Origin: Thiotrichaceae bacterium
GTDB lineage: Bacteria; Pseudomonadota; Gammaproteobacteria; Beggiatoales; Beggiatoaceae
Assembly: GCA_029939505.1 (NCBI GenBank)
Contig: JAOZSV010000005.1
Span: forward strand, 477 to 64,476
Direction of reading: 5' to 3'
DNA: 64,000 nucleotides
Both the position numbers and the translations under genes were made by a program. Below the pieces are notes generated by a model that saw nothing but the letters and a program-made list of their open reading frames with translations, did no database searches and was not told the origin of the DNA. This document shows, piece by piece, positions 435 to 56,115 of the stretch; within the stretch, counting starts at the first letter, position 1, and each line of letters begins with the position of its first letter.

Positions 435-602
435 AATGAACATGTATTTTTTCGGGAACATTTCTTAACTAATTACAGGTACTGAAACTCCTAACAACTA
501 TTAATTAAATGGGGGTTGGCAGGTTTCCAAACCACTTGAGCCGATTTTTTGGATGGTGTTTTAGTTGTTCCTATTTTACTAGCGATTAACCAACTGATAT
601 TA

Positions 603-3600
603 ATGATGAAAAATACCATTCGAGCAACCACATGGGTGGAATTACTTCGCGAGAGAGTACAACATTCCCCAGATAATCTCGCTTATACATTTCTTGTTGA
701 TGGTGACATCACAAAGGAAATTAGCTTAACATACCAAGAATTAGAACAAAAAGTCCAAGCTATTGCTGCCAAACTTCAGAGCTTGATCGCCCCTGGTGAT
801 AGGGTATTATTACTCTATCCGCAAGGAATAGATTATGTTGCAGGTTTTTTGGGGTGTCTATATGCGGGAGTTATAGCGATTCCGATTTTTCAGCCTCGGG
901 GTAAACATTCTGATATTCGTATTCAAGCGATTGCTGATGATGCACAGGCCAAGGTTGCCTTAACCACAAACAATATCTTATCTAACGTAGCACATCGCCT
1001 TGATGATGCATCACCTCTTAAAGAATTGCAGTGGTTGGCTACAGATAATATTTCTATTGATCTGGCAGACACTTGGCAACAGCCTGATATAAATAGTGAT
1101 ACACTGGCTTTTCTTCAATATACTTCCGGTTCAACGGGAATCCCCAAAGGGGTAATGGTAAGCCATGGTAATCTGCTGCACAATTCCGCATACACGGCAT
1201 CAATTTGGCAGTACAACTCTAAAAGTATTATGGTGACATGGTTGCCTATTTTCCATGATATGGGGCTAATTTTTGGAATACTACAACCCATATATAAAGG
1301 TTTCCCTTGTTATCTGATGTCACCAGCTACTTTTGTTCAACGCCCTTTTCGATGGCTTCAAGCAATTTCACATTATAAAGCAACTCATAGCGGTGCTCCA
1401 AATTTTGCCTATGATCTGTGTGTGCAAAAAATTTCTGCAGAGCAACGTGCCAGTCTTGATCTAAGCAGTTGGTGTATGAGCTTAAATGCGGCTGAGCCAG
1501 TAAGAGCAGAAACTTTTCAACAGTTTATCAAAGTGTTCAAGCCGTGTGGCCTTCAGCCAACCACGATTTGTCATGGTTATGGCCTGGCCGAAGCAACGCT
1601 TATTGTAGCTGGTGCTTGGAAACAAGATATGCCGGTTTACTATAAAATTCAAAGTGATGCTCTTGAACAACATAAAGTGGTAGCAGCGGGTGATTCTGTT
1701 CTGGAAGTACAAACGCTTGTTGGTTCTGGCTATCCGGCGGTAGATGCCCAAATTGTGATTGCCAATCCAGCCACTTTATCGCAATGTTCAGCGGGTGAAG
1801 TGGGTGAAATTTGGGTTTCAAGTCCCAGTGTTGCTCATGGTTATTGGCAAAGACCGCTTGAAACCGCAGAAACTTTTCAAGCCTATTTGCGTGATACTGG
1901 TGCTGGCCCATTTTTACGCACAGGTGATTTAGGATTTTTACGAGATGGGGAACTTTTTGTCACAGGTCGCATCAAAGATGTGATTATCATCCGTGGTAAC
2001 AACTATTATCCTCAAGATATTGAATTTACGGTAGAAAAAAGTCATCCGATGCTACGGCAGGTTGGATATGGAGCTGCATTTGCGGTAGAAGTGGTAGGCC
2101 AAGAACAATTGGTTGTAACCCAAGAAGTAGAACGTTCTGCATTGAAAAAGTTGAATGGTGATGAAGTAGCCAGTGCTATCCGTCAAGCAGTTTCGGAAGA
2201 ACATGACCTACAAATTTATGCTATATTGTTATTAAAACCAGCAACTATTCCAAGAACCTCCAGTGGCAAAATCCAACGCAGTGCTTGTCGAACTGAATTT
2301 TTAGAAAGTACCCTTAAAACAATAGCAACGTGGCAACAACCGATTATTCACACAGAAGAATCGACTACAAGCCAAGATAATTCCAGCATAGTAACGGCGA
2401 AAACCATTCAAAATTGGTTAGTAAACAAACTTTCTCAACAACTGAAAATTGCGGTATCAAAGATAAATATTTTAGAACCATTTTCTCGTTATGGTTTTGA
2501 TTCAATAACAGCGACGAGTCTATCTGGTGAATTAGAAATTTGGTTAAAACGGTCTTTATCTCCCACGATAGCATATAATTATCCTAATATTCACGCATTA
2601 TCCCAATATTTAGCTGGAGAATCACAACCTTCGCCCAAAAAAAATACGAATCTGCTTGAACCAACTGAAACCATAGCTATTATCGGTATGGCTTGCCGGT
2701 TTCCAAACGGAGCAAATAATCCTGAGGCTTATTGGTCGCTTTTACGCAATGGAATTGATGCTATCAGTGAAATCCCTAAAAATAGATGGGACAAGACTCA
2801 TTATTATGAGCCAGAACATGAAAATCCGGGTAAAATATCTACAAATGCCGGTGGGTTTCTTGATAAAGTTGATCAGTTCGATGCAGCGTTTTTCCGCATT
2901 TCTCCCAGAGAAGCGGAGGGAATGGATCCACAACAACGGTTTTTACTAGAAGTCAACTGGGAAGCACTGGAACAGGCGGGATTATCGCTAGCCACATTGG
3001 AAGGCAGCCAAACGGGTATTTTTACGGGTATTTTTTCGCACGACTACGAAACTCTGCAAATTAAACAAAACACGGACAAAGACTATGATTCCTACTTTGG
3101 TACAGGCAATTCTTCGTCGATTGCAGCTGGTCGCCTCGCCTACTTTTTCGATTTCCAAGGACCCGCAATTTCCATCGACACTGCTTGCTCGTCTTCCCTT
3201 GTTGCAGTACATCTAGCTTGTCAAAGCCTACGCAACAGGGAATGTGATTTGGCACTTGCTTCTGGTGTGAATCTGTTGCTCTCACCGGAACTGAGTATCA
3301 CTTTCTCCAGTGCAGGCATGTTAGCACCTGATGGACGTTGCAAAACTTTTGATGCTTCAGCAAACGGTTATGTGCGCGGTGAAGGTTGTGCGGCGATTGT
3401 ACTGAAACGACTTCCACAGGCATTAGCCGATAATGATAACATTTTAGCAATAATACGTAGTTCAGCCATCAATCAGGACGGCACTAGCAACGGTTTGACC
3501 GCTCCTAACGGACTTGCTCAAGAAGCTGTTATTCGCAAAGCCCTATCTGGAATTCCCCCCGCCGACATATCTTATGTGGAAGCTCACGGCACTGGGACAT

Positions 3601-6600
3601 CATTGGGTGATCCCGTGGAATTCAAAGCACTAGAAGCCGTGTATGGAGAAGATCGGACAGATGATAATCCGCTTTTCATCGGTTCTGTGAAAACTAATAT
3701 AGGCCATACGGAAGCGACGGCCGGATTAGCGGGATTGCTAAAAATTGTGTTAGCCATGCAACACAACTACATTCCACCTCATATAAATTTTAAAACCTTA
3801 AATCCATATATTAGCTTAGATAAAATTCCCGCACGAATCCCGATAAAAGGAATAGCTTGGAAAAAACAGCCAGATAAACAACGTCTAGCCGGCGTGAGTG
3901 CTTTTGGTTTCAGCGGCACCAACGCTCACATTATTTTGCAGGATCCGCCTAGCTCAGTACGGCCTAAACAAATACCTGAACGTTCTCATCATCTATTAAC
4001 GCTGTCTGCTCGGACAAATGAGGCATTGCGAGAACTAGCACAAACTTATGTTACTTATCTCAATGCCGATGAAGTGCCACCGCTTGGAGACTTATGTTTT
4101 ACCGCTCATACCGGACGCACTCACTTTGATCACCGGTTGGCTTTAGTGGCTGAATCGACTGCACAAATCTGTGAAGAATTAGAGACTTTTGTTGCCGAGA
4201 AAGAAAAAAATCCCAGATTGATGTATGGGCAAATACCCGAACAATCTGCTCCAAAAATAGCCTTTCTATTTACCGGACAAGGTGCCCAATATGTTGGCAT
4301 GGGACAACAATTGTATGAAACTCAGCCCCACTTTCGGCAAACGATAGATTTTTGTGATGAAATCCTGCGCCCCTATTTAGGAAAGCCATTGCTTGAAGTT
4401 CTCTATCAAACCTCAGCGACAGAAGAACTGAATGAAACCACTTACACCCAACCGGCCTTATTCGCTATAGAATATGCGTTAGCGGAACTGTGGCAATCAT
4501 GGGGTATACAACCGAATGCAGTGATGGGGCATAGTGTAGGTGAATACGTAGCTGCTTGTATCGCTGGTGTCTTTAGCCTAGAAGATGGCCTGAAACTGAT
4601 TGCAGAACGGGGACGTTTAATGCAGGCTTTGCCACGGTCAGGTGAAATGGTGGTCGTGCGTGCAGATGAAGAAGTGGTGAAGGCAACCATTCAGCCTTAT
4701 GCTAAGGCCGTTTCTATAGCAGCAGTGAATGGGCCAACGAATATCGTGATATCTGGAGAGTCTCAGGCGGTAAAATCTATTGTAGCCGACTTGGAAAAAG
4801 AAGGTATTAAAACTACTTATTTAAAGGTTTCCCATGCGTTTCACTCACCATTGATGGAGCCAATACTCAAATCCTATGCCCAAATTGCTAGTGAAATCAC
4901 GTATGCCGCCCCACAGATTGACTTGATTTCCAATGTAACTGGCAACATGACAACAGCAGTATCAAATCCAGAATATTGGGTTAAGCATATACGTCAGCCA
5001 GTCAGATTTGCCCCTAGTATGGAAACCTTACGGCAATTGGGTTGTCAAATATTTGTGGAAATAGGCCCAAAACCAGTTTTGTTGGGCATGGGCCGTCATT
5101 GTGTGCCTGAAGCAATTGACAATGTTTGGCTTCCCAGTTTGCGTCAAGGCGTATCGGATTGGCAACAATTATTTCAGAGTTTAGGGACATTATATTTGCA
5201 TGACATACAGGTGGACTGGGCCAGTGTCGATCGGGATTATCCACGTCGGCGGGTGTCTCTGCCAACTTACCCTTTCCAACGGCAACGTTATTGGATTAAG
5301 ACCGCCACTATCCCCCGGACACTAGGTGAATCCGGTACGGCTTTGCATCCTTTATGGGAAAGAAAACTACAATCGCCTCTTCTTAAAGAAACCGTATTTG
5401 AAACGCAGTTCAGCGCCACTTATCCGTCTTTTATCGCGGATCATGTTATTTTTGAAAAAATCATTGTACCGGGTGCAAGTCATATCTCCATGTTGCTGGG
5501 AGCCGCTGGACTGAGTTTTGGAGACAAGGGCTGTGTGCTAGAAAATATTATTTTTCTCCAGGCTTTGATAATTCAGCCCGAAGAAACACGCACAGTGCAA
5601 GTGTTGTTGGCACCGGAAAATGAATCTTCCCAACATACAGTTAAGCTTATCAGCTTTGTTGAAAATTCAGTCGAAAACAATATTTGGATAGAGCATGTGA
5701 CTTGCATGATTTTGACAAAAGCACCCCCGCCAGAACCTATATCCATACAAGCACTGCAAGCTCGCTGTCTAAAACAAATGCCTGGTACGACGATTTATCA
5801 AACCATGCAACAGCATCAGTTCCAACTAGGTGCGGATTTCAGGTGGGTAGACTCAATCTGGCAGGGAGATGACGAGATATTATGTCGTATGAAATGGCCA
5901 GAAAGCGTGGAAAATGTAGAAGAATATCAATTGCATCCTGGTCTCATTGACTCCTGCTTCCAACCATTTTTCCTCACGCTATCCGCAGAAGAAGACCTGA
6001 CTTTTGTGCCTTTCAGTGTGGAAAAATTCGCTTATTACCAGCATCCAGACCCTGCGGCGCAATTATGGTGTCACGCAACGTTCAGGAAACCAACAATACC
6101 GAACAAAGAACAACTGCTTATGGACACCTGTTTATGCGATGAAACGGGTCAAGTCCTTGCGGAGGCGATTGGGCTGGAATTAAGAAAAGGCAGTCGTAAT
6201 GCTTTGCTGCGTAGCCTAGAAAAGAATTTCAGTGATTTGCTATATGAAATCACTTGGCAACCCGTAGCTATCGAAAATAAAGAGCAGAATACAAAAACAG
6301 GCCGTTGGCTTATTTTTGCAGATCGTAAGGGTATCGGGGTTAAGCTAGCTGAACGCCTACAAGCACAAGGGGAAAGCTGTGTAGTCATTTCGCACGGTGA
6401 TACATACCAACGCTTGGGAGCAGAACACTATTCTATTAACCCAGTAGTCCCCGAAGATTTTACCCGTTTGCTGCGCGACAGTCTTTTTGCCTCTGACATA
6501 TTACCATGCCGTGGCATTGTACATCTCTGGAGCCTGGATACGGCGTTTACCCAAATCACAAATACTGATGATTTGCAAAACACCCAAATACTTGGTTGTG

Positions 6601-8147
6601 GTAGCGTGTTGCATTTAATTCAGTCTATGGTACAAAGCGAATGGGACAAGCATCCACCCCGCATAAGTTTAATCACTCGCGGCGCACAACCAATAGACAC
6701 CACCGCCTCTTACCCGTTACAAGCACAACAAGCCAGCTTATGGGGATTGGGAGGTATGATCGCACTGGAATATCCAGATTTACATTGTCTGCGGGTCGAT
6801 TTGGATCCATCCGAAAAATCAGATATAATATCAAACTTATTTGAAAGCATTTGGCAAACTGATAAAGAAGATCGGATTGCCTACAGGCAAAATACCCGCT
6901 ATGTCGCCAGACTAGCGCGGACAAATCAGCAAAGTATGCAAGTACTGTCAATAAATGGCAGTTACTTAATTACCGGTGGCTTAGGGGGTTTAGGACTCAA
7001 AGTTGCCGATTGGTTGGCTGGGCAAGGTGCAAAACACCTGTTCTTGATTGGACGCAGCACCACATCAGAAACGGCGCGTAACGAGATTAACCGGTTAGAA
7101 CAAGCAGGCACTCGTGTAACCGTTATGTCAGCGGATGTCTCCAAACCAGATGATATAGCCCAAGTATTTGAAACAATCAAGGCATCTTCCCAACCTCTGC
7201 GGGGGGTCATTCACACAGCCGGGGTGCTTGAAGATGCCCTGCTGCAAAAGCAGAACTGGACACAATTCAGTCGGGTAATGGCACCAAAAGTTGCGGGTGC
7301 GTGGAATTTGCACAACCTGACGCAGGATATCGCGTTAGACTTTTTTGTGTGTTTTTCTTCAAGCACCGCTTTGCTAGGAGCAGCGGGACAAGGGAACTAT
7401 GCTGCCGCTAATGCTTTTATGGATGGTTTGGTACAGCATAGGCGTGATTTGGGGTTACCGGGTTTAAGCATTAACTGGGGGCCTTGGGGAGAAATCGGTA
7501 TGGCCGCGGCGTTGGATACCCGCGATCAAGCACGTTGGTCCGATTTAGGAATTGGCAATATAGCCCCAACACAGGGAGTAAAGATATTAGAACGGTTACT
7601 AACGAAAAATACAGCCCAAATGGCTGTATTGCCTGTCAACTGGTTAAAATTTTTGCAACAATTTCAAAAGGATGCCCAACCGCCGTTTTTCGATGCATTC
7701 AAACAGGTATCTGAAAAACCATCGTCGGCGCAACCGTCGTTTATCAAACAACTTGAAGCAACACCGGCTGCAAAACAACGAGATTTATTGCTTGGGCTTG
7801 TACGTTCTCAAATCGGTAAAGTAGCTAGGCTACGTGCAATCGAACAAATACAGCCTCGGCAAAGATTATTTGATTTCGGATTGGATTCCCTGATGGCGGT
7901 TGAACTGAAAAACAATCTCCAAACAAGCATGGGACAAACACTTCGTGCGACTTTAGTATTTGATTATCCCACCATTGAAGCGTTGGTTAATCATCTATTC
8001 CATGACATTTTAGAATTATCTGAAGAAAAACTAGTTGGAGAAAAAACTGAACCTGTTGAAGAAGAGGACTCAACAAAACTGGAAGAACTGTCAAAAGACG
8101 AAATAGACGCATTGCTGGATGACAAACTGGCCGAATTGGATTTTTGA
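603..8147 (+). CDS. Loading plus first extension PKS: FAAL-ACP-KS-AT-DH-KR-ACP
   Basis: The track ORF starts at TTG 549. The tandem ATGs at 603/606 sit just before the conserved N-terminus and are preferred. Domains read in order:
- FAAL: fatty acyl-AMP ligase core LQYTSGSTGIPKGVMVSHGNL.
- ACP: carrier Ser in GFDSIT (codon 2502-2504).
- KS: IAIIGMACRFP, DTACSSS (Cys codon 3186-3188), EAHGTGT, NIGHTE.
- AT: GHSVGE (Ser codon 4533-4535) plus VSHAFHS (malonyl-type).
- DH: HPLWERK, DHVIFEKIIVPGASH (His codon 5442-5444), LIDSCFQ.
- KR: TGGLGGLG with an LED/LDD-type motif.
- ACP: GLDSLMA, followed by an acidic C-terminal docking tail. Confidence 0.93.
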   Translation: MMKNTIRATTWVELLRERVQHSPDNLAYTFLVDGDITKEISLTYQELEQKVQAIAAKLQSLIAPGDRVLLLYPQGIDYVAGFLGCLYAGVIAIPIFQPRGKHSDIRIQAIADDAQAKVALTTNNILSNVAHRLDDASPLKELQWLATDNISIDLADTWQQPDINSDTLAFLQYTSGSTGIPKGVMVSHGNLLHNSAYTASIWQYNSKSIMVTWLPIFHDMGLIFGILQPIYKGFPCYLMSPATFVQRPFRWLQAISHYKATHSGAPNFAYDLCVQKISAEQRASLDLSSWCMSLNAAEPVRAETFQQFIKVFKPCGLQPTTICHGYGLAEATLIVAGAWKQDMPVYYKIQSDALEQHKVVAAGDSVLEVQTLVGSGYPAVDAQIVIANPATLSQCSAGEVGEIWVSSPSVAHGYWQRPLETAETFQAYLRDTGAGPFLRTGDLGFLRDGELFVTGRIKDVIIIRGNNYYPQDIEFTVEKSHPMLRQVGYGAAFAVEVVGQEQLVVTQEVERSALKKLNGDEVASAIRQAVSEEHDLQIYAILLLKPATIPRTSSGKIQRSACRTEFLESTLKTIATWQQPIIHTEESTTSQDNSSIVTAKTIQNWLVNKLSQQLKIAVSKINILEPFSRYGFDSITATSLSGELEIWLKRSLSPTIAYNYPNIHALSQYLAGESQPSPKKNTNLLEPTETIAIIGMACRFPNGANNPEAYWSLLRNGIDAISEIPKNRWDKTHYYEPEHENPGKISTNAGGFLDKVDQFDAAFFRISPREAEGMDPQQRFLLEVNWEALEQAGLSLATLEGSQTGIFTGIFSHDYETLQIKQNTDKDYDSYFGTGNSSSIAAGRLAYFFDFQGPAISIDTACSSSLVAVHLACQSLRNRECDLALASGVNLLLSPELSITFSSAGMLAPDGRCKTFDASANGYVRGEGCAAIVLKRLPQALADNDNILAIIRSSAINQDGTSNGLTAPNGLAQEAVIRKALSGIPPADISYVEAHGTGTSLGDPVEFKALEAVYGEDRTDDNPLFIGSVKTNIGHTEATAGLAGLLKIVLAMQHNYIPPHINFKTLNPYISLDKIPARIPIKGIAWKKQPDKQRLAGVSAFGFSGTNAHIILQDPPSSVRPKQIPERSHHLLTLSARTNEALRELAQTYVTYLNADEVPPLGDLCFTAHTGRTHFDHRLALVAESTAQICEELETFVAEKEKNPRLMYGQIPEQSAPKIAFLFTGQGAQYVGMGQQLYETQPHFRQTIDFCDEILRPYLGKPLLEVLYQTSATEELNETTYTQPALFAIEYALAELWQSWGIQPNAVMGHSVGEYVAACIAGVFSLEDGLKLIAERGRLMQALPRSGEMVVVRADEEVVKATIQPYAKAVSIAAVNGPTNIVISGESQAVKSIVADLEKEGIKTTYLKVSHAFHSPLMEPILKSYAQIASEITYAAPQIDLISNVTGNMTTAVSNPEYWVKHIRQPVRFAPSMETLRQLGCQIFVEIGPKPVLLGMGRHCVPEAIDNVWLPSLRQGVSDWQQLFQSLGTLYLHDIQVDWASVDRDYPRRRVSLPTYPFQRQRYWIKTATIPRTLGESGTALHPLWERKLQSPLLKETVFETQFSATYPSFIADHVIFEKIIVPGASHISMLLGAAGLSFGDKGCVLENIIFLQALIIQPEETRTVQVLLAPENESSQHTVKLISFVENSVENNIWIEHVTCMILTKAPPPEPISIQALQARCLKQMPGTTIYQTMQQHQFQLGADFRWVDSIWQGDDEILCRMKWPESVENVEEYQLHPGLIDSCFQPFFLTLSAEEDLTFVPFSVEKFAYYQHPDPAAQLWCHATFRKPTIPNKEQLLMDTCLCDETGQVLAEAIGLELRKGSRNALLRSLEKNFSDLLYEITWQPVAIENKEQNTKTGRWLIFADRKGIGVKLAERLQAQGESCVVISHGDTYQRLGAEHYSINPVVPEDFTRLLRDSLFASDILPCRGIVHLWSLDTAFTQITNTDDLQNTQILGCGSVLHLIQSMVQSEWDKHPPRISLITRGAQPIDTTASYPLQAQQASLWGLGGMIALEYPDLHCLRVDLDPSEKSDIISNLFESIWQTDKEDRIAYRQNTRYVARLARTNQQSMQVLSINGSYLITGGLGGLGLKVADWLAGQGAKHLFLIGRSTTSETARNEINRLEQAGTRVTVMSADVSKPDDIAQVFETIKASSQPLRGVIHTAGVLEDALLQKQNWTQFSRVMAPKVAGAWNLHNLTQDIALDFFVCFSSSTALLGAAGQGNYAAANAFMDGLVQHRRDLGLPGLSINWGPWGEIGMAAALDTRDQARWSDLGIGNIAPTQGVKILERLLTKNTAQMAVLPVNWLKFLQQFQKDAQPPFFDAFKQVSEKPSSAQPSFIKQLEATPAAKQRDLLLGLVRSQIGKVARLRAIEQIQPRQRLFDFGLDSLMAVELKNNLQTSMGQTLRATLVFDYPTIEALVNHLFHDILELSEEKLVGEKTEPVEEEDSTKLEELSKDEIDALLDDKLAELDF

Positions 8148-8159
8148 TTTAAGAAAACT

Positions 8160-11100
8160 ATGAAGAAAAACGTTGTGGAAAATATGGACGATACGCAGAG
8201 AATAAAACGTGCGTTTATTGCCATAGAAAAATTGCAATCTAAGCTCAAAGTCTTAGAATACGCAAGAACTGAACCTATTGCTATTATCGGTATCGGTTGC
8301 CGGTTTCCTGGTGGTGCCAATAATCCGGATGCGTATTGGCAATTGCTGCGTGACGGGGTGGATGCTATCAGTGAGGTGCCTACAGACCGTTGGGATGTAG
8401 AAGCTTACTATGATCCTGATTGGACAAAACAAGGCAAAATCAATACTCGCGACAGCGGTTTTCTCAACACAAAAGTTTATGATTTTGACCCGCAATTTTT
8501 TGGTATAGCACCGCGAGAAGCCATGCAACTAGACCCACAGCAACGTTTATTGCTAGAAGTGGCTTGGGAAGCATTAGAATACGCCAATATTGTGCCTGAT
8601 CGATTGTTTAATAGTTCGACCGGCGTATTTATAGGAATTAGTACGGTTGACTATGCTGTGCGTCAATTGGGTATGCAAGAACCCTCCAAAATTGGTGCTT
8701 ATGTGGGTACCGGCGCACTTTTGAGTCCGGCTGCTGGACGGTTGTCCTATATGTTAGGGTTAACGGGGCCGAGTACGATTGTTGACACGGCCTGTTCGTC
8801 ATCATTATTGGCAGTGCATTTTGGTTGTCAGAGTTTGCGTAATAAAGAGTCCGATCTCGTATTGAGCGGCGGTGTAAATCTGATATTGGCACCAGAACTA
8901 TGTAGCTATTTTTCGACTGCTGGTATGTTGTCGCCAGACGGACGTTGTAAGACTTTCGATGCAGCAGCCAACGGCTACGCGCGTTCAGAAGGGTGTGGCG
9001 TTATGGTACTCAAACGCCTTTCAGACGCACTGGCTGATGGGGATAATATTTTAGCTTGTATTCAAGGGTCAGCACTCAACCAAGATGGACCCAGCGGAGG
9101 TTTGACAGTACCTAGTGGGCCATCGCAAGAACAAGTTATCAAGCAAGCTCTAGCCAGAGCGGGTTTAGAACCAAACCAAGTGGATTATATAGAAGCGCAT
9201 GGCACCGGCACCGCGCTGGGTGATCCGATTGAAGTGGGTGCTTTGAGTGCAGTATTTGGTCAGGTTCGCCATCAAGATCGTCCCTTATTGATTGGCTCGG
9301 CAAAAAGCAATGTGGGGCATATGGAAGCCGCCGCCGGGATGGCAGGCTTGATAAAGGTGGTACTGGCCTTACAGCACGAAGAAATTCCGCCTAATTTACA
9401 TTTTTCTCAGCCCAGTCCCCGTATTCCTTGGGATGCCTTCCCAGTCAAGGTGCCAACAGAACGAACTCGTTGGCAGACAGAAACAGATAAGCGGCGGATT
9501 GCGGGCATAAGTTCTTTTGGTTTCAGCGGTACTAACGCGCATGTGATAGTGGAGGAAGCGCCTGAATCACAACAAAATAAAAAACAAAACACGGGAGATA
9601 TTCGTCCACTGCATTTATTAACCTTGTCAGCAAAATCGGATACAGCACTGAAAGAATTGGCTGAACGTTATAAAAAGTCTCTTTCAGACTCTGTTACAAA
9701 CACCAAACAGCACCATGAAAGGGATTTAGGTGATATATGTTTTACGGCTAACACCTGTCGTTCCCATTTTCAACACAGGCTGAGTGTCATCGCGGGTTCG
9801 TCCGCGCAAATGCGTGAAAAACTAACAGCCTTCATTGCTGGAACAGAAACGGGAGGAATATTTGCAGGGAAAGAGGGGACGCAATTTAAAATCGCTTTCC
9901 TATTCACTGGGCAAGGCTCCCAATATGTGAACATGGGGCGCACATTGTATGACACTAACGCCACTTTTCGCCAAAGCATTGTACGTTGCGACGAAATTCT
10001 ACGCCCTTGGCTAAAAAAGCCGTTGCTTGAAGTCTTGTATAACTCAGGGGCGGATAACTCTCTACTCAACGAAACGGTTTATACCCAACCTGCCCTGTTC
10101 GCGCTGGAATACGCCCTAACCCAATTATGGAAATCGTGGGGTATAGAACCTAGCGTTGTCATGGGACATAGTGTAGGAGAATACGTTGCAGCGTGTGTAG
10201 CCGGGGTATTTAGTTTGGAAGATGGCCTCAAACTGATTGCCGAACGTGCCCGTTTGATGTACAATTTACCGCGTGATGGTGAGATGGTGACAGTTTTTGC
10301 CAATGAAGAACGGGTCGCAACTGCCATTCAATCCTATACTCAACAAGTGTCAATTGCGGCCATTAATGGGCCTGAAAGTATTGTGATTTCAGGGCAGCGT
10401 GAGGCCATCAACACTATCGTAACCACGTTTGCAGCTGATGGTGTTAAAACCAAACCGTTAAAGGTCTCTCATGCGTTCCATTCTCCGCTGATAGAACCCA
10501 TGTTGTCAAATTTTGAGCGAGTTGCGAAAGAAATTACTTTTTCACTGCCAAAAATAGATTTAATTTCTAATCTCACTGGTCAACTTGTCACGGAAGATAT
10601 AACCACGCCTGAATATTGGTGTCGTCATATTCGTCAACCAGTGCAATTTGTAGGCAGCATGGAAACACTTTATCAGCTACAAGGGAATGAGGTATTATTT
10701 GTAGAGATAGGCTCAAGACCGGCTTTGCTAAGTATGGGGCGACAATGCCTGCCCGAAAATGTGGGCGTTTGGTTGCCGAGTTTGCGTTATGGACAAGATG
10801 ATTGGCAACAAATTCTATCAAGTTTAGGCGAATTATATGTGCGTGGTACCCCAGTCAACTGGGTCGGCTTTGATCAGAATTACCAGCGGCATCGGGTGAG
10901 ATTGCCAACTTATCCTTTTCAGCGAAAGCGTTATTGCATTGAGAGACCCACCCCCAAAGCGCGTAGAGGTTTTTTGCCGCACGAAGCAAAACTGCATCCT
11001 TTAATTGATAAAAAAATACAATCGCCACTGCTCAAAGAAACTTTATTTGAAAGCTATTTTCATACAGAGAATTTGCCTTTATTAGCAGATCACCTTGTGT

Positions 11101-13721: not shown

Positions 13722-13744
13722 TCGCAAGAACTATCAATCTAATC

Positions 13745-19327: not shown

Positions 19328-19328
19328 C

Positions 19329-34409: not shown

Positions 34410-34419
34410 ATGACTACTA

Positions 34420-40400: not shown

Positions 40401-43400
40401 CAAAGCCAGCTTTGTCAATAATCCTCATGCCAATGACACATATAATAGCGTGATTTATCGAACTGGCGATTTAGGTCGTTGGTTACCAGATGGTTCGTTG
40501 GAATTTATTGGACGGCTTGATGATCAAGTCAAGATTCGTGGTTTCCGCATTGAGTTGGGCGAAATTGAAGCAGTCTTGGGACAATATCCACTGATAGCAC
40601 AAAATTCCGTTATTGTCAAGGAAACATCTCAAACAGATAAACGTTTAGTGGCTTATTTGGTGCCAAATAAAGAACAAGTCCTTGAAAATACAGCATTACG
40701 CACTTTTTTGGAAGAACGATTACCTGTTCATATGATACCATCGGCCTTTATCACGTTAGAAGCTTTGCCACTGACACCTAATGGAAAAGTAGATCGCCGT
40801 GCTTTAGCGAAGTTATCAGTTAGCTATGACCATTTAGAAGAACAATTCATGGCCCCGCGAACCCCGGAAGAGGAATTGTTAGCCACTATTTGGGCTGAGG
40901 TATTAGATGTCTCGCAAGTCGGTGTCCATGATAATTTCTTTGAACTAGGTGGCCATTCTTTACTAGCCACGCAGGTGATATCACGGATCCGTGACACGTT
41001 TGAACTTGAACTTCCCGTGCGCGTATTATTTGAATCGCCAACGATACAAACCCTAAGCGAACACCTTGGAAACGTCCGTCGGGAATCTGCTTTACCACCA
41101 ATAACTCTTGTGAATCGGAACGAGCCATTACCGTTATCTTTTGCCCAACTGCGTTTATGGTTCTTAAACCAACTGGAGGGCAACAGTGCAACTTATAATA
41201 TACCAGCCGCACTACGTCTTGAGGGGCCGCTTCACCAAAATCCCCTTCTCAGAAGTTTACAAACTCTGGTACAGCGTCACGAAAATTTACGAACCGTTTT
41301 CCCAACGTTAAAGGGACAACCTGTTATTAAAATTGTCGATAAGCCTTTCCAAGTAAATACTCTTTCTTTAACGGCCTTATCGCTTGAAAAACAACAACTA
41401 GAAGTACAACGGCTGGTGAACAGCGATGCCAATCGTCCTTTTGACTTAGAAATAGGGCCGTTATTCCGTGCCACCTTGCTTCAACTAAGTGCCGAGTCAC
41501 ACATTTTGTTGTTAAATATGCATCATATCATTTCGGATGATTGGTCCCTTGGTGTTTTGATTCGGGAGTGGCGTGTTCTTTATGAAGCATTTGTGCAAGA
41601 TCAAGCTTCGCCCTTACCACCATTGCCAATCCAATATGTTGACTTTGCTCACTGGCAACGACAATGGTTACGCGATGATGTGCTTGAAAAACAAATCGAT
41701 TATTGGAAACAACAATTGGCTGGTGCCCCGGCATTACTGGGATTGCCGACTGACCATCCACGCCCACCCGTGCAGCGTTTCCAAGGTACGAGTTTACCGA
41801 TTTTCTTCTCAAAAGAATTGTCCGAACAACTGAAACACCTAAGTCAGCAAAGTGGAACGACCCTGTTTATAACACTATTGTCGGCTTTTGCTACTTTATT
41901 ATCTCGCTACAGTGGTCAAAACGATATTGTCATTGGATCGCCTATCGCTAACCGTACTCATAGTCAAACGGAATCCTTGATTGGTTTTTTCGTCAATACA
42001 CTGGTATTACGCCTTAATTTGTCTGATAATCCGCCTTTTGAGACGCTTTTGCAACAAGCTCGACGAGTCGCACTAGAGGCTTACACTCATCAAGATATTC
42101 CTTTTGAGCAGTTGGTTGAGAAACTGCAACCTGCCAGAGATATCAGTCACTCGCCACTGTTCCAAGTGATGTTAGTGTTACAGAATGCACCTCAATCAAG
42201 TTTGGAATTGTCGGGGCTGACTTTAACCCCATTAGAAATGGAAAGCACTATTGCTAAATTTGATCTGACGTTATCAATAGAAGAAACAGATCAAGGAATC
42301 ATGGGTGAATTGAATTATAACACTGATTTATTTGAAGCGACAACAATAGAACGCTTGAGAGAGCATTTATATACTTTACTCACTGGCTTAGTGGCTAATC
42401 CGCAGCAACCGATTCACGAATTACCTTTGCTCACTGAGGCCGAACAAAAACAATTATTGGCTTGGAACGACACCGCCACAGATTATCCGCATGACAAGAC
42501 CATTGTCGACTTGTTTGAAGAACAAGTTGAACAAACCCCTGATGCCGTTGCTGTGATATTTGAAGATCAACAACTGACTTACCAAGATTTAAATAGTAAA
42601 GCCAATCAACTGGCCCATTACATACAAGATTTAGGCGTAAAACCGGAAGTACTGGTGGGGATTTATGTCGAGCGTTCTCCTGAGATGATCATTGGATTGT
42701 TAGGTATTCTCAAGGCTGGTGGTGCTTATGTGCCATTTGATCCGGTTTACCCGACTGCACGTTTGACGTTTATGTTAGAGGATACGAAAGTATTGGTGTT
42801 GTTGACTCAATCAAGTTTAATAGAGAAATTACCAAAAACTCAGGCGCAAGTGGTTTGTTTAGATGTGGAAGCAGATGCACTCTCACATTTAAGTGCGAAA
42901 AATCCCACCAGTGGAGTGGTACCAACTAATTTGGCTTATGTGATTTATACATCGGGTTCGACAGGTCAGCCAAAGGGTGTGATGATTGAGCATTTATCGG
43001 TTATCAATCTCTTGAACGGATTGTATCAAACCCTCTATACTCACTATAAAAATTCCCAACTTCGCGTGAGCATGAATGGGGCGTTAACATTTGATACTTC
43101 AGTGAAACAACTGATTCAACTTTTGCATGGTCATGTTCTTGATATTATACCCGAAGAAGTTCGATTCAATAAGGAAGCCTTATTAGCTTATTTACAAGCA
43201 CATCAAATCAATGTGTTTGACTGTACTCCCTCACATTTGAACTTATTTTTTTCTAAGGAGCTACTCCCCAATACGAGTTCAGTACTTCATTCTATCATCA
43301 TTGGTGGTGAACCTCTTGATGATTTGACTTGGCAATTTTTGCAGAAAACTGAAAAAACTTCCTTTTACAATATTTATGGTCCCACAGAATGCACGGTTGA

Positions 43401-50400: not shown

Positions 50401-53159
50401 ATCCTTTTGAACGTCAGCGTTACTGGATTGAGCCTTCAACAGACATTGCTACCCAAGAGGCTTTATCGGCCTCACAGGCTAAAAAGTCAGACATTGCCGA
50501 TTGGTTTTATCTGCCTTCGTGGAAACGTTCTGTGCTCCGGACTCATCTTTTGAAAACCTCTGAACTCGACCGGTATTTGGTGTTGATGGATGAATGGGGC
50601 CTCGCTAGCCAACTGGTGACTCGATTGGAACAACAAGGCCATGAAGTCATTACAGTAAGAATGGGAACCACATTTACTCAAACGAGTGAACACAACTATA
50701 TTCTTAATCACCAAAACCGTGATGACTATGATGCTTTGTTCAAAGAACTTAGCACACTCGACAAGATGCCACAGAATATTGTTCATTTGTGGACTATCAC
50801 GAATGATTGTTTTAATGCCAGCGGATTTGAAGAGGTTAAAAAAATTCAAGCTTTAGGATTTTATAGTCTGCTGTTTATAGCACAAGCTCTTGGAAAGCTC
50901 AATTTTACTGATGCGCTTCAACTTCTAATCGTGTCAAACTATTTGCTAGCGGTGACTGAAACAGAGATGTTGTGCTCGGCAAAGGCGACTGTACTTGGCC
51001 CACTTAGTGTTATGGGGCAAGAATATCCAAACATTAATTGTCGAAGCATCGATGTTGTTATTTCCTCATCAGAAGAAACAGAGGTTATAGATACATTGCT
51101 AATGGAAATGGCAAGTAAACACGCTGAACGTGTAATTGCTTACCGTGGTAGGCAACGCTGGGTACAAACTTTTGAACCAGTCAGATTGCTTGAACCCGAT
51201 GAAGAAATATCACCGTTAAGAGAAGGAGGAGTCTATCTGATAACTGGTGGATTGGGAAAAATTGGTTTGGTGCTGGCAGAGCATTTGGCAAAAACAGTGC
51301 AAGCCAAATTGATCTTGACTGGGCGTTCAACTTTTATCGCTTCTAAGGACTGGAAGGATTGGCTGAACACTCATGATGAATATGATGATATCAGTCTCAA
51401 AATCAAAAAAATGCAAGCCATTGAAGAACATGGGGCTGAAGTTTTGATAGTCCGTGCTGATGTGGCTAATCTGCAACAAATGCAAGAAGCGATAACAATG
51501 GCAGAGGAACGGTTTGGTCAAATCAATGGAGTCATTCATACTGCCGGCGTTGTTGAAGACAGTTCATTTAGCTCTATTGAAGAAAGTCGAAAAAATCATT
51601 GTGAACGGCAATTTCAGCCAAAAATATACGGTACATTGGTATTAGAAAAGGTTTTGGAAAAGAACAAACTTGACTTTTGTTTCTTAATGTCTTCCTTATC
51701 TTCGGTTTTAGGCGGATTAGGATTTGTAGCCTATTCAGCCGCCAATATCTTTATGGACGCTTTCGCTTACCAACAGAACCGGGTCAAAAAATCTGTGCCT
51801 TGGCAAAGCGTGAACTGGGATGGTTGGCAATTTGACAACAATACGGAGCCAAGTTCCTCTATTGGAACCACAGTGGCTGAATTTGCGTTCCAAGCGGATG
51901 AAGGTGTCAATGCCTTGCGAAGAGTTTTATCCTATCCTCAACTCACTCAGTTAGTTGTCTCAACGGGTGACTTACAAACTCGGTTCGAGCAATGGGTACT
52001 ACTTGAATCCAAACAAAAGGAAAGCGGGAAATCCTCTAGGCGCTATGCTAGGAATTTGACGACCCCTTATGTGGCCCCTAGTAATGAGATAGAGCAGAAG
52101 CTAGCTGAAATCTGGCAAACCCTCTTGGGGATAGAGCAAGTCGGGATACATGATAACTATTTTGATTTGGGCGGACATTCCCTGTTAGCCGTGCGCTTGA
52201 TGGGGCAGATTGGACAGCTGTTTGGAGAACACCTACCTATCGCTACGCTGTTAGAAGGCCAAACCATTGAAAAACTCGCTCATCTACTACTTCGTCAGAA
52301 CACCACAGACTCTTGGTCTTCTTTGGTACCTATTCAGCCAAAGGGTTCAAAACCACCTTTTTTCTGCATCCCAGGGCTGGGTGGTAATGTGATTTATTTA
52401 TATGAGTTAGCACGTTGCTTAGGCATTGAACAACCGTTTTATGGTTTACAAGCGGTAGGATTTGACGGAGAATCTAAACCTCATACGACTATTGAAGAGA
52501 TGGCTACACACTATATTCGAGAAATACAAACCATACAGCCGGAAGGACCTTATCTGATTGGTGGTCATTCTTTTGGTGCTAAAGTGGCTTTTGAGATGGA
52601 TCAACAGTTACAAAAACAGGGGCAAGAAGTGGCACAACTGGTCATTTTTGATACAATCTCACCTCAGTATTCTAACGAACCAATAGGTGTTGATTGGGAT
52701 GACGTTCAATGGTTGATGGCAGCCGCTAAAGTAGTAGAAGAGTGGTTAGAAACACCTCTTGAAGTCACTGAAACGGTACTCCAATCCCTAGAACCAGCAG
52801 AACAATTAAGCTATTTCCATGAACAATTAAAACGAGTAAACCTTTTTCCACTTGATAGCGATATCAAAAAAGTTCGGGGTTTTGTAGAAGTTTACAAGGC
52901 GAATATTCAAATGCATTATCATTATGTACCACTGGAAATTTATCCAACTCGCATTAGCCTCTTTAAGGCGGCCATTGAGGAACCTGAAGAAACTCTCTCT
53001 GACAAATTGTCTGAGATTCTACGCGAGCCAACTTGGGGGTGGAGTCAGTTGTCGACAGAACCTGTGGCTATTCATGTTGTCCCAGGCGATCATATGACTA
53101 TGATGAATCAGCCTCATGTACAAGTTTTAGCAGAACAACTGAATGTTTGTATTGTATGA
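44316..53159 (+). CDS. Hybrid NRPS-PKS termination protein: docking domain, C-A-PCP, KS-AT-KR-CP, TE
   Basis: The track ORF starts at 44298. ATG 44316 is preferred because GGAGGA lies at 44305-44310 and the ATG overlaps the upstream stop (ATGA).
- C: HHIISDGWS.
- A: LAYVNYTSGSTGQPKG, NGYGPTE; code DALWLGGTFK (Val-type).
- PCP: FFEVGGHSLL.
- KS: IAIIGMSGRFP, QTACSTS, ETHGTGT, NVGHLN.
- AT: LFPGLGDHY, GYSIGE (49650-49664), YHAFHS.
- KR: TGGLGKIG, YSAAN.
- PCP-like carrier: YFDLGGHSLLAV.
- TE: GGHSFG, PGDHMTM. Confidence 0.93.
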   Translation: MKTIEAFLSHLNSLKVKLWEDKEELCYKAPKGVITQALFTEIAERKTEIITFLRQATIATRAHLPPIVPLSRDKDLPLSFAQQRLWFLNQFESDSATYNIPAALRLEGPLYQDALIKSLQTLVQRHENLRAAFPTRNGHPVVQVVEKPFQLSVLDLTTLSLEKQQPKVQQLVNLDANRSFDLETGPLFRATLLQLSADSHVLLLNMHHIISDGWSIGVLVREFSAVYEAFVQDQPSPLPPLPIQYADFAHWQRQWLRGEVLEEQIRYWKQQLAGAPALLELPTDYPRPPVQRFRGTSLPVVLKPELTAQLKHLSQQAGTTLFTTLLSAFAILLSRYSGQSDIVIGSPIANRTHSFTESLIGFFVNTLVLRLNLSGNPPFENVLQQARQVALEAYTHQDIPFEQLVEKLKPERKLSHSPLFQVMFVLQNTPMSGLELAGLSLTPLEAESVIAKFDLTLSMEETADGFLVGGLEYNTDLFERLTVERLIGHFKTLLNGLVANPQQPIHEFPLLAEAEQKQLLAWNDTATDYPRDKTIVDLFEEQVEQIPNAVAVVFKDQQLTYRELNIKANQLAHYLQNLGVKLEVLVGICVERSLEMMIGVLGILKAGGAYLPLDPAYPAARLAFMLKDAKIPVLLTHSTLVKGLPSHQAKTICLDTDWKKLSQFSENNLLTEMTPDNLAYVNYTSGSTGQPKGAEIRHRGVTRLLFGVDYIHLDASQVFLQMAPISFDASTLEIWGALLHGSQCILFPSNIPTIKELNEVLQKHHVTILWLTAALFNSIIDKVPDIFSGIRQLLVGGEALSIPHIRRALDALPNTQLINGYGPTESTTFTCCYPIPKLLDNNLSSIPIGYPIGNTQVYILDAWLQSTPIGVPGELHIGGAGLARGYFNRPELTQEKFIPNPFSQEPEAQLYKTGDLVRYRTDGKIEYLGRIDNQVKIRGFRIELGEIEAVLSQHPAIRENAVIVHETSATDKRLVAYLVPSKSKGQLINNTELRGFLKERLPDYMIPSTFVTLDTMPLTPTGKIDRRALPEPDSTARPQLEAAYVMPQTDAEQRIATVWQQLLQIEKVGIYDNFFEVGGHSLLMVQIQSELQKLFKQPLSMIELFQYPTINALATHLTQDKSQKTAGVLKTSALSGDSQDIAIIGMSGRFPGAQDVDTFWQNLRNGIESITFFSEEELLTEGIEPSLLNDPNYVKAFGLLEDIELFDAAFFGYSPGEAEILDPQQRFFLECAVGAIENAGYDVNRIKGQVGVFAGIGVSDYLLNHIFSHQSLIESVGELPLLLANDKDFLSTRISYKLNLTGPSLNVQTACSTSLVAVHLASQSLRNGECDIALAGGVSIQTPQKVGYLYQPNMIVSPDGHCRAFDAKAQGTIGGSGVGIVVLKRLDQALADGDYIHAVIKGSAINNDGALKVGYTAPSVDGQAAAIAKAMREIDPETITYIETHGTGTTLGDPIEVAALTQAYQQRTQKKGFCAIGAVKTNVGHLNAAAGVTGLIKSVLALKHKMLPPSLHFEQPNPKIDFANSPFFVNNTLSEWKSDGVHRCGVSAFGMGGTNAHVVLEEAPPREPASLGRTWQLLTLSAKTDSALKAAAMNLAIYLKEHPEINFADVAYTLQVGRQTFKHRGMVVCQEMNEAIKVLDTFDPKRISIYASEPRERPIVFLFPGLGDHYVNMAKGLYQSEKIFREQIDFCCDWLKPLLGLDLRELLYPNTEATKESESTIVQSQFDLRKMFASQPESADGTSQKLNQTIFTQPTVFMVEYALAKLWMSWGIKPQAMIGYSIGEYVAACIAGVISLEDALRLVAERAKMIDKLPEGSMLAVPLSEEEVLPLLTEELSLAIISTPKQCVVSGRSKAIGEFEIILKEKEIVCRRLQSYHAFHSWMMDGCSEPLGKLIASIPLKSPTIPYISNVTGTWITKEQATNPHYWVQHTTHTVRFADGINTLLQTPDWIFLEVGPGRSLGSFVFQHPSIQKIEERVVLSSLRHRNEQQADEAFLLNILGQLWLAGIQIKSSSFYAEETRYRLPLPSYPFERQRYWIEPSTDIATQEALSASQAKKSDIADWFYLPSWKRSVLRTHLLKTSELDRYLVLMDEWGLASQLVTRLEQQGHEVITVRMGTTFTQTSEHNYILNHQNRDDYDALFKELSTLDKMPQNIVHLWTITNDCFNASGFEEVKKIQALGFYSLLFIAQALGKLNFTDALQLLIVSNYLLAVTETEMLCSAKATVLGPLSVMGQEYPNINCRSIDVVISSSEETEVIDTLLMEMASKHAERVIAYRGRQRWVQTFEPVRLLEPDEEISPLREGGVYLITGGLGKIGLVLAEHLAKTVQAKLILTGRSTFIASKDWKDWLNTHDEYDDISLKIKKMQAIEEHGAEVLIVRADVANLQQMQEAITMAEERFGQINGVIHTAGVVEDSSFSSIEESRKNHCERQFQPKIYGTLVLEKVLEKNKLDFCFLMSSLSSVLGGLGFVAYSAANIFMDAFAYQQNRVKKSVPWQSVNWDGWQFDNNTEPSSSIGTTVAEFAFQADEGVNALRRVLSYPQLTQLVVSTGDLQTRFEQWVLLESKQKESGKSSRRYARNLTTPYVAPSNEIEQKLAEIWQTLLGIEQVGIHDNYFDLGGHSLLAVRLMGQIGQLFGEHLPIATLLEGQTIEKLAHLLLRQNTTDSWSSLVPIQPKGSKPPFFCIPGLGGNVIYLYELARCLGIEQPFYGLQAVGFDGESKPHTTIEEMATHYIREIQTIQPEGPYLIGGHSFGAKVAFEMDQQLQKQGQEVAQLVIFDTISPQYSNEPIGVDWDDVQWLMAAAKVVEEWLETPLEVTETVLQSLEPAEQLSYFHEQLKRVNLFPLDSDIKKVRGFVEVYKANIQMHYHYVPLEIYPTRISLFKAAIEEPEETLSDKLSEILREPTWGWSQLSTEPVAIHVVPGDHMTMMNQPHVQVLAEQLNVCIV
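49283..50426 (+). other. GYSIG-type AT domain of the terminal PKS module; approximate bounds
   Basis: RPIVFLFPGLGDHYVNMAKGLY, MIGYSIGEYVAACIAG, AERAKMI, YHAFHSWMM, YPFERQRYW. Shares long identical peptide runs with the second AT of the 24311-28702 gene. Confidence 0.8.
52300..53156 (+). other. Type I thioesterase domain; approximate bounds
   Basis: PFFCIPGLGGNVIYLYELA, GGHSFGAKVAFEM (GxSxG), and a C-terminal PGDHMTMM histidine motif at the end of the last megasynthase. Confidence 0.85.
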
Positions 53160-53213
53160 ATCATCATCAAAAAGAGTGTAGCCTCCATTTGAGGTAAATA
53201 TTTTTAAAGGTCA

Positions 53214-53443
53214 TACCAATTTGCATTCTCTGAAGTACTAAGTTCTGAAGCATAAGTTTTATTACTTTTTGGAGTCCAAAGCTGATGCGAAGGCAATAAA
53301 CAATTTTGTAACTGCCTACGCTTACGCTTTGGACTCCAAAATATCAGATAATTTGTGCTTCAGTACTTAAATAGAAGCCTAATAAACCAAGTTTCTTAAA
53401 GAAACTTTGTTTTTTAATACTTCTTGGAACGCCAATTGGTATC
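53214..53443. repeat. Roughly 230-nt multi-tier palindromic element (long imperfect hairpin)
   Basis: Four nested inverted-repeat tiers read directly:
- ATACCAATT 53214-53222 with AATTGGTAT 53435-53443.
- TAAGTTCTGAAGCA 53240-53253 with TGCTTCAGTACTTA 53357-53370 (13/14).
- TTGGAGTCCAAAGC 53270-53283 with GCTTTGGACTCCAA 53327-53340 (14/14).
- GCGAAGGCA 53288-53296 with TGCCTACGC 53314-53322 (8/9). Confidence 0.8.
53390..53416 (+). terminator. Candidate intrinsic terminator (AT-rich stem plus T-run)
   Basis: AAGTTTCTT (53390-53398), A, AAGAAACTT (53400-53408), followed by TGTTTTTTAA. The stem is AT-rich and lies inside the right arm of the larger palindromic element, so its function is uncertain. 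Confidence 0.3.
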
Positions 53444-53541
53444 ACACTTATCAAAAACTTGAGCATCAATAAGTAGATAAATCATTGATTTTAAATACCT
53501 ACATGATGAAGTAGGAACTACCAACTACTTGAAAGGACAAT

Positions 53542-54789: not shown

Positions 54790-54851
54790 CAGTCTAATTT
54801 TCCACTTGGTAAAGAATGCGAAATTCAGTTATACTAAACAAAGGAGATATT

Positions 54852-55706: not shown

Positions 55707-55730
55707 TTGTACTCCCTTACAACTGCAATG

Positions 55731-55768
55731 AGTGTGACCTCAATTTACATCAAACGGGAGGTCACACT
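55731..55768. repeat. Intergenic hairpin (11-bp perfect stem, 16-nt loop)
   Basis: AGTGTGACCTC (55731-55741) pairs with GAGGTCACACT (55758-55768), and imperfect pairing extends outwards to about 55725-55774. It lies between the dehydrogenase stop and the carrier-protein start. No T-run follows. Confidence 0.6.
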
Positions 55769-55819
55769 TACTGCAATAACTTAAATATTGCGTTTAACTC
55801 GAACTTAAAAGGTAATTAC

Positions 55820-56056: not shown

Positions 56057-56065
56057 GAAATACCT

Positions 56066-56088: not shown

Positions 56089-56115
56089 GTCTAGCTCATA
56101 AAAAATGGAGAAAAA

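Follow-up and report, generated by a model that had tools for sequence, protein, structure and literature searches.

The subject of this study is a 64,000-nt window of DNA from a Thiotrichaceae bacterium (assembly GCA_029939505.1, contig JAOZSV010000005.1), which contains a hybrid polyketide synthase (PKS) and nonribosomal peptide synthetase (NRPS) gene cluster. All coordinates given below are those of the whole window. Eight co-directional open reading frames (ORFs) were listed on the + strand at 549-53159, separated by gaps of 12, 23, 1, 5, 76 and 10 nt and joined at one junction by a 22-nt overlap, with a GC content of 41-46% over this span. A previous description made from the letters alone (the initial annotation) had placed the cluster at 603-53159; its eight ORFs with small gaps or overlap were borne out by the ORF listing, but its end was not, as further cluster genes extend as far as 58337. 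The start of ORF1 is a TTG at 549 in the NCBI record and 603 is the first in-frame ATG, a trivial difference. The domain order was established by Pfam scans and by phmmer mapping with internal exemplars, and was identical to that given in the initial annotation.

ORF1 (549-8147) encodes the loading unit and module 1, which comprise a fatty acyl-AMP ligase (FAAL, 648-2327), an acyl carrier protein (ACP, 2415-2612), a ketosynthase (KS, 2664-3791), an acyltransferase (AT, 4263-5174; malonyl-type, GHSVG/HAFH), a dehydratase (DH, 5343-6218), a B-type ketoreductase (KR, 6309-7493) and a second ACP (7779-8018). ORF2 (8160-13721) and ORF3 (13745-19327) encode modules 2 and 3, each composed of KS-AT(malonyl)-DH-KR(B-type)-ACP, and ORF4 (19329-24305) encodes module 4, KS-AT(malonyl)-KR(A-type)-ACP, without a DH. 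The first half of module 5 is encoded by ORF5 (24311-28702), which has the order KS-AT0-AT and no ACP: a KS (24416-25549), a dead AT remnant (AT0, 26042-26782), a second KS-AT linker (27362-27550) and a ZmaA-like AT (AT2, 27617-28675; GYSLG). The second half of module 5 is encoded together with NRPS module 6 by ORF6 (28779-34409), in which an ACP (28863-29063) is followed by a low-complexity linker of about 240 amino acids (aa), a class III aminotransferase domain (AMT, 29808-30887), a condensation domain (C, 31173-32498), an adenylation domain (A, 32550-34025) and a peptidyl carrier protein (PCP, 34086-34298). ORF7 (34420-44319) encodes NRPS modules 7-9 as three consecutive C-A-PCP units. ORF8 (44298-53159) encodes modules 10 and 11 and the release step in the order TubC_N dock-C-A-PCP-KS-AT-KR-CP-TE, with the TubC_N docking domain at 44325-44480, the A domain at 45924-47384, the KS at 47730-48857, a ZmaA-like AT (GYSIG) at 49293-50333, the KR at 50577-51830, the carrier protein (CP) at 52089-52289 and a thioesterase (TE) at 52356-53132. 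CurL-like linkers were seen in the PKS, and the gene junctions carry matching docking elements, namely acidic C-terminal tails (ORF1-4), helical N-termini (ORF2-5) and the TubC_N domain (ORF8). We also observed at the N-terminus of ORF7 (residues 1-95; 34420-34704), before the first C domain, an internally duplicated segment of about 45 aa (KDELLALLLEEE...ARDKTVGE, twice), which may be a duplicated docking element.

The catalytic motifs are intact throughout ORF1-8, with the exception of the one dead AT. The Cys, HGTGT and xGH motifs are kept in all six KS domains, and the three DH domains retain the catalytic His, as well as the Asp of LIDxCF(Q/G), with an altered form of the usual HxxxGxxxxP. 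The catalytic Tyr is present in all KRs; KR1-3 show the LxD pattern of the B-type, KR4 of ORF4 lacks the LDD motif and has the SVWG tryptophan of the A-type, and KR11 of ORF8 reads VED. The integrated carrier domains keep their Ser without exception (12/12), four C domains read HHxxxDG, and the TE has GHSFG together with its Asp and His. No epimerization domain was found in the NRPS modules. The N-terminus of ORF1 consists in Pfam of an AMP-binding domain, a DIP2-like C-terminal domain and a PP-binding domain; in NCBIfam it best matches fatty-acid--AMP ligase families (PRK05850, 458.9 bits; FadD32, 438 bits), at scores below the equivalog cut-offs, and a FAAL-type insertion is visible when the ligase is aligned with the A domains. 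The AMT domain of ORF6 best matches glutamate-1-semialdehyde aminomutase families (class III), as do MycA-type aminotransferase domains. Since ORF5 has no KR, DH or ACP, module 5 is non-reducing, with its ACP and AMT supplied by ORF6. Residues 100-340 of ORF6 contain no PF00296 or other oxygenase and gave no Pfam match, being a low-complexity linker. A hidden domain in this region or in residues 825-1100 of ORF5 was considered and rejected, as Pfam returned only the second KS-AT linker and the remainder is of low complexity. These data agree with several proposals of the initial annotation, namely FAAL priming, three DH-KR modules followed by a KR-only module, an aminotransferase domain for a β-amino step at the ACP-AMT junction, and five A domains with a terminal reducing PKS module and TE.

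Five further + strand genes follow ORF8 at 53542-58337 and belong to the cluster. The first encodes an EctB-type diaminobutyrate--2-oxoglutarate transaminase (53542-54789; Pfam Aminotran_3), which scored 658.7 bits against TIGR02407 (cut-off, 552.2) and would supply L-2,4-diaminobutyrate (Dab) for module 8. It is followed by genes for a 3-hydroxyacyl-CoA dehydrogenase family protein (54816-55706; FkbK/ZmaG-like), a stand-alone ACP of 78 aa (55820-56056; FkbJ/ZmaD-like) as a candidate extender-unit carrier, an acyl-CoA dehydrogenase family protein (56116-57288; FkbI/ZmaE-like) and an FkbH-family protein (57285-58337; HAD-IIIC phosphatase/glyceryl-ACP-forming), which has a DLDNT motif and scored 276.9 bits against TIGR01686 (cut-off, 146.65). 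FkbH, FkbK, FkbJ and FkbI (ZmaN, ZmaG, ZmaD and ZmaE) form the established gene set for hydroxymalonyl-ACP, and this set is complete here, with all four genes present. No O-methyltransferase was found in the window or the rest of the contig, and methoxymalonyl is therefore not expected. The cluster, including these downstream genes to 58337, is intact and about 58 kb long, and it is likely that it encodes a colinear, eleven-module hybrid PKS/NRPS assembly line together with its own precursor-supply genes.

To assign the substrates of the A domains, Stachelhaus codes were read by alignment to GrsA-PheA. The code positions were validated by the reference sequence, for which the same reading gave the published code, DAWTIAAICK. 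The A domain of ORF6 (module 6) has the code DLKNFGSDVK and was assigned to homoserine (Hse), since this code is cited as a Hse code in a study of laxaphycin and scytocyclamide (PMC7524897). The other four domains read DILQLGLIWK (first A of ORF7, 36085-37599; Gly), DIWEMTADDK (second A of ORF7; Dab), DTKDIGIVDK (third A of ORF7, 42508-44019; Glu-like) and DALWLGGTFK (A of ORF8; Val). The Gly and Val codes are exact matches to the textbook codes; the second code of ORF7 differs by one conservative change from the presumed Dab code (approximately DIWELTADDK), and the third agrees at 7 of 10 positions with the presumed Glu code, DAKDLGVVDK. The Dab assignment is also supported by the EctB-type gene that adjoins the cluster ORFs. 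The sequence X-Gly-Dab-Glu-Val read in the initial annotation is thus in agreement with the codes, and X can now be read as Hse.

The sole close relatives of the cluster are environmental sequences, from a Candidatus Parabeggiatoa metagenome-assembled genome (MAG) and one metagenome. When 5.8 billion proteins were searched with ORF6, the Parabeggiatoa orthologue was 71% identical and nothing else exceeded 57%. In the Parabeggiatoa locus (L002/L003; QNER01000002.1), from the Guaymas Basin MAG Candidatus Parabeggiatoa sp. nov. 1, the genes follow one another in the same order and encode products of 1658, 1468, 1880, 3300 and 2955 aa. Contigs of the JGI 3300039269 metagenome cover 25799-44401 at 98.7% and 47285-58423 at 97.2% nucleotide identity, again in the same gene order, and the second of them joins ORF8 to the ectB and fkbH genes. 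ORF4-ORF5 are 95.6% identical to Parabeggiatoa at the nucleotide level (96.3% for ORF4 and 93.4% for ORF5 at the protein level). Identity is mostly 83-100% in the C and PCP regions and drops to 29-54% within three A domains only. The exchanged A cores lie at 32550-34025, 36085-37599 and 42508-44019, so that at least three of the four comparable cores differ, and the codes read Hse/Gly/Dab/Glu-like in the window as compared with Dab/Ala (DLFNNALTYK)/Dab/Thr (DFWNIGMVHK) in Parabeggiatoa. The first A domain of Parabeggiatoa is closest to the Dab A domain of the window itself (84.6% nucleotide identity), which suggests that it arose as an intra-cluster copy. A-domain cores thus appear to have been swapped naturally on an otherwise conserved scaffold. 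We also noticed in the same MAG another AMT-containing NRPS fragment, 51% identical to ORF6 (L006, QNER01000713.1), indicating that the Parabeggiatoa lineage has more than one β-amino-acid assembly line. The ratio of nonsynonymous to synonymous substitution rates (dN/dS) was 0.20-0.27 in the comparisons with enough divergence. Among the internal repeats of the window, the best show 76-81% identity over 0.7-2.1 kb, with 86% along a single 229-nt stretch, and all stay below 90%; a mis-assembly of repeated modules was rejected on this ground and because two other assemblies give the same order. Taken together, the independent assemblies, the lack of repeats of at least 90% identity and the dN/dS values make the artefact and pseudogene readings unlikely.

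The ATs of the cluster fall into two kinds, and one AT is degenerate. Those of modules 1-4 are 65-70% identical to one another and carry the GHSVG and HAFH motifs of malonyl-CoA-type ATs. AT0 of ORF5 has GNGVG instead of GHSxG, a change of Ser to Gly, and a deletion of about 70 aa that includes the histidine of HAFH; it was already written as AT0 in the initial annotation, and we regard it as the probable fossil of an original malonyl AT. AT2 of ORF5 is located behind a long low-complexity spacer and the second KS-AT linker. It shares 65% identity with the AT of ORF8, whereas either shows only about 40% identity to the four malonyl ATs, and among solved structures both best match ZmaA-AT, the crystallised AT specific for hydroxymalonyl-ACP (4QBU; E value of about 1e-78). 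The two domains read GYSLG and GYSIG, respectively. The ATs that accept ACP-linked extenders, ZmaA (GYSFG) and ZmaF (GYSLG), carry Tyr in this motif, whereas malonyl and methylmalonyl ATs carry His; ACP-extender ATs also have hydrophobic residues at the RXR position (PMC4207774). At this position the malonyl ATs of the window read K-T-T or K-T-K, like ZmaK, and the two ZmaA-like ATs read L-H-R and V-C-R, the first residue being hydrophobic. The presence of such ATs and of FkbH was then compared among about 80 loci with relatives of the AMT-NRPS. ATs with GYSxGE occurred in only four places, that is, the family of the window, a 57%-identical metagenomic cluster (JGI 3300021513; L085), a short contig from a MAG of an Elainellaceae cyanobacterium (L064) and the locus L005, and FkbH homologues occurred only in the family of the window and in L005. 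The latter derives from an organism unrelated to that of the window (MAG Deltaproteobacteria bacterium YD0425bin50, PDZT01000002.1, 513-19897) and has the order KS-AT(GYSIGE), FkbK, ACP, FkbI, FkbH, followed by a 3299-aa protein, ACP-AMT-C-A-PCP-KS-AT(GYSLGE)-KR-ACP. Judged from its domains, this compact analogue should make a core of an α-hydroxy-β-amino acyl unit, an amino acid and a dihydroxy-γ-amino acid. The co-occurrence of FkbH and GYS-type ATs in L005 supports the hydroxymalonyl assignment, and we hold with moderate confidence that modules 5 and 11 both use hydroxymalonyl-ACP.

The arrangement of a dead AT, a spacer, a second KS-AT linker and a GYSxG AT, without an ACP, is also found in Parabeggiatoa (L002, 5413-9819; GNGVG) and in L085 (5494-9993; GHGVG, with the same deletion), which marks it as old and stably kept. 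The AT remnant is perhaps kept to support the KS. A short motif is common to the inter-AT spacer of ORF5 (about 27000-27100, SNVISQQLAFLR) and the ACP-AMT linker of ORF6 (about 29350-29420, SQVVSQQLEFLR), and the same linker motif recurs in L085 (SQVVSQQLAFLR), a hint of shared origin or of a recurring linker or dimerisation element. A homologue search with the AT of ORF8 alone gave just short stand-alone ATs, with the self match absent, and was uninformative on the extender choice. Stand-alone ATs of this kind are widespread in Nostocales (P0149-P0193); they are about 468 aa long, consist of a KS-AT linker and an AT, and share about 50% identity with the ZmaA-like AT of ORF8.

We propose the following biosynthesis. 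The FAAL would adenylate a free fatty acid and load it onto the first ACP. In each of modules 1-3, malonate would be added, reduced by a B-type KR and dehydrated by a DH, giving an all-E 2,4,6-trienoyl chain, and module 4 would add another malonate and stop at the alcohol formed by its A-type KR. In module 5, split over ORF5 and ORF6, the appended ZmaA-like AT would load hydroxymalonyl from the stand-alone ACP, itself charged by FkbH, FkbI and FkbK, and the AMT would turn the β-keto group into an amine, yielding a 3-amino-2,5-dihydroxy-6,8,10-trienoyl thioester. The five NRPS modules would then add L-Hse, Gly, L-Dab (provided by the EctB homologue), L-Glu and L-Val. In module 11, Val would be extended with a second hydroxymalonyl unit and the ketone reduced to give 4-amino-2,3-dihydroxy-5-methylhexanoate, and the TE would release the chain, in all likelihood as a macrolactam closed on the free β-amine. 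With reasonably good confidence, the predicted product can be written as R-(CH=CH)3-CH(OH)-CH2-CH(NH2)-CH(OH)-CO-Hse-Gly-Dab-Glu-NH-CH(iPr)-CH(OH)-CH(OH)-CO-, probably cyclised. With an octanoyl (C8) starter, the β-amino acid has 18 carbons and the computed composition of the cyclic product is C40H67N7O13, with an [M+H]+ of 854.487. The initial annotation had left C2 of the β-amino acid as either H or OH and had drawn the terminal unit as a 3-hydroxy γ-amino acid. The former is most likely OH, introduced via hydroxymalonyl-ACP, and the latter is probably 2,3-dihydroxylated.

Several points weigh against this proposal or limit its detail. The product is predicted only and its host is uncultured; the length of the starter chain is not readable from the sequence; and a literature search with the Dab and Glu code strings returned no match, these two assignments being tentative. 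The release mode of the TE likewise cannot be read from the sequence, and as the chain contains several competing nucleophiles, the regiochemistry of the TE may be other than proposed. Release could occur by hydrolysis to a linear product, by lactonisation via the C5, Hse or diol hydroxyl, or by lactamisation via the γ-amine of Dab. We consider a release of any of these kinds rather unlikely, although it is the most viable of the alternatives, as the β-amine closes the ring in the iturin, puwainaphycin and anabaenolysin families (PMC4219810, PMC3400675).

The second alternative concerns the extender units. In the same assembly line, one or both ZmaA-like ATs could load malonyl-CoA, with hydroxymalonyl-ACP used at one position only, and the product would then be devoid of the C2 hydroxyl of the β-amino acid and/or the 2-hydroxyl of the terminal γ-amino acid. 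Both ATs keep HAFH, the malonyl-type form of the YASH motif, and have Arg instead of a hydrophobic residue at the third RXR position, unlike ZmaA and ZmaF, which read GAAH and GPFH, respectively, at the YASH position (PMC4207774). The motifs therefore do not settle the extender choice, and hydroxymalonyl is perhaps used by one AT only. However, for the complete FkbH cassette there must be at least one acceptor AT, and the other four ATs are canonical malonyl ATs. In addition, GYSxG is common to both known ACP-extender ATs, ZmaA-AT is the best structural match of both domains, and two GYS ATs likewise accompany a single FkbH cassette in L005. We therefore prefer hydroxymalonyl at both positions and regard malonyl loading as unlikely.

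Two further points against the proposal are the third C domain of ORF7 (around 41830), which reads HHIISDD instead of HHxxxDG, and the genes expected to accompany the line. The initial annotation had noted that no phosphopantetheinyl transferase (PPTase), MbtH-like or ABC exporter gene is visible in the window, and this holds: no PPTase, MbtH-like or exporter gene was found on the 72-kb contig, and a motif scan of all six frames for MbtH-like proteins gave no match. That the cluster is silent, decaying or a chimeric mis-assembly, so that its product is not made, is very improbable, for although the sequence is MAG-derived, has IS630 and IS4-type transposases just 3' and no PPTase or exporter nearby, and contains the one HHxxxDD C domain, its 53 kb of uninterrupted ORFs keep their catalytic residues, the dN/dS values refer to two relatives and indicate constraint, two other assemblies share the order, no repeat reaches 90% identity and the docking elements match at each junction.

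The cluster is of the FAAL-primed β-amino-acid lipopeptide PKS/NRPS kind, but it appears to be a member of no described compound family, as judged from characterised matches that were obtained by protein search and not from MIBiG. For ORF6, these matches are PuwE of puwainaphycin biosynthesis (50-52% identity over 58% of ORF6), MicA of microginin (49% over 56%) and the Anabaena sp. XPORK13A NRPS P0113 of anabaenolysin (47% over 51%). The puwainaphycin (puw) cluster shares FAAL priming, extension by PKS, a TE and, as part of the first NRPS, an integrated class III aminotransferase (PMC4219810). Its 3-amino-2-hydroxy acyl unit acquires the 2-hydroxyl from a monooxygenase domain inside PuwE (PMC4219810). 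This domain, located between AMT and C, is missing from ORF6, which has no alternative hydroxylase of this kind, and the cluster has instead the hydroxymalonyl-ACP cassette and ZmaA-like ATs. Moreover, puw incorporates ten amino acids and its one reducing PKS module works on a saturated fatty acid, whereas the present cluster counts six KS domains, with five PKS modules that build a triene, a terminal PKS module and five A domains.

The closest known chemical logic is that of anabaenolysin, a small macrolactam with a triene-bearing 3-amino-2-hydroxy C18 acid. Its C-terminal unit is a 2-hydroxy, 3-oxygenated γ-amino acid, AOFHA, which is also found in amicoumacin C (PMC3400675). In anabaenolysin, however, just Gly-Gly lies between the unusual units and the extended residue is Asx, whereas the present cluster reads Hse, Gly, Dab, Glu and Val; the triene is at C5-C10, without a C5 hydroxyl; and P0113 has a luciferase-like oxygenase (PF00296) and an FkbM-type methyltransferase (PF05050), neither of which occurs in the cluster. 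Membership in the anabaenolysin or puwainaphycin clusters was ruled out by module count, domain content and identity. Zwittermicin A biosynthesis has the same type of four-gene extender cassette (ZmaN/D/E/G with ZmaA-AT) and GYSxG ATs (PMC4207774), but the ATs of the present cluster carry HAFH where ZmaA has GAAH, one of them is appended behind a dead AT, and the product would be a lipopeptide, not an aminopolyol. Iturin and mycosubtilin (ItuA/MycA) share the order acyl ligase-ACP-KS-AMT followed by NRPS, and closure on the β-amine (PMC4219810). These Bacillus systems have one PKS condensation and are without reductive modules, a polyene, hydroxymalonyl or a terminal PKS module. In amicoumacin and xenocoumacin biosynthesis, an amino acid is extended with hydroxymalonyl-ACP by an NRPS module followed by KS-AT-KR-ACP, an order that would yield a γ-amino-α,β-dihydroxy acid. 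Modules 10 and 11 resemble this logic, but the present cluster uses Val, and its extending module is terminal and fused to the TE.

The dead AT with an appended ZmaA-like AT would represent a so far undescribed way for a cis-AT module to gain an ACP-linked extender. Taken as a whole, the locus may tentatively be read as encoding the first predictable product family of Beggiatoaceae, with two hydroxymalonyl-made units, diversification by exchange of A cores and extender acquisition by the dead-AT/ZmaA-like-AT module; we regard this combined reading as possible but somewhat doubtful. We know of no NRPS/PKS product described from giant sulfur bacteria. NRPS/PKS clusters make up 25.9% of the genome of Ca. 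Thiomargarita magnifica (bioRxiv 10.1101/2022.02.16.480423). The cluster offers a concrete structure, mass and chromophore to seek in sulfur mats, and the ORF4-ORF5 scaffold of about 95% identity with differing A cores constitutes a clean natural experiment on NRPS specificity swaps. The hydroxymalonyl-ACP route to the α-hydroxy-β-amino motif differs from the oxygenase route of puwainaphycin, and the engineering of extender units could take guidance from the conserved dead-AT/live-AT module. The novelty is tempered in that each chemical step has precedent and MAGs very commonly contain orphan hybrid clusters; what makes the cluster worth following is its host, the exchange of A domains in nature and the conserved dead-AT/ZmaA-like-AT module.

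The window corresponds to positions 7711-71710 of the 72-kb contig JAPOGY010000075.1 (assembly GCA_029940435.1), and no biosynthetic genes were found in the 7.7 kb upstream of it on that contig. Upstream of ORF1, a candidate sigma-70 promoter is located at 405-434 on the + strand (TTGACA-18 nt-TATAAT, 12/12 positions), its function being suggested by the consensus match only. On the 3' side, the cluster is flanked by mobile elements. Beyond 58337, a P-type metal ATPase gene is followed by a split IS630 transposase and then by a second transposase. The IS630-family transposase (61141-62250) is broken into two ORFs, one with the helix-turn-helix part and the other with the DDE part, and the second DDE transposase (IS4-type) starts at about 62581 and runs past the end of the window. 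A palindrome with a perfect 20-bp stem (60981-61028) lies between the ATPase gene and the insertion sequence. A cyanobacterial host, which the GC content of 42-45% and the CurL-like linkers had first suggested, was rejected in favour of a probable Beggiatoaceae host, given the close relationship to the Ca. Parabeggiatoa MAG and the Thioploca match of the flanking ATPase. The best named relatives of the flanking ATPase are from Thioploca sp. (73%), Ca. Electrothrix (65%), Ca. Parabeggiatoa (56-58%) and Thioflexithrix (57%).

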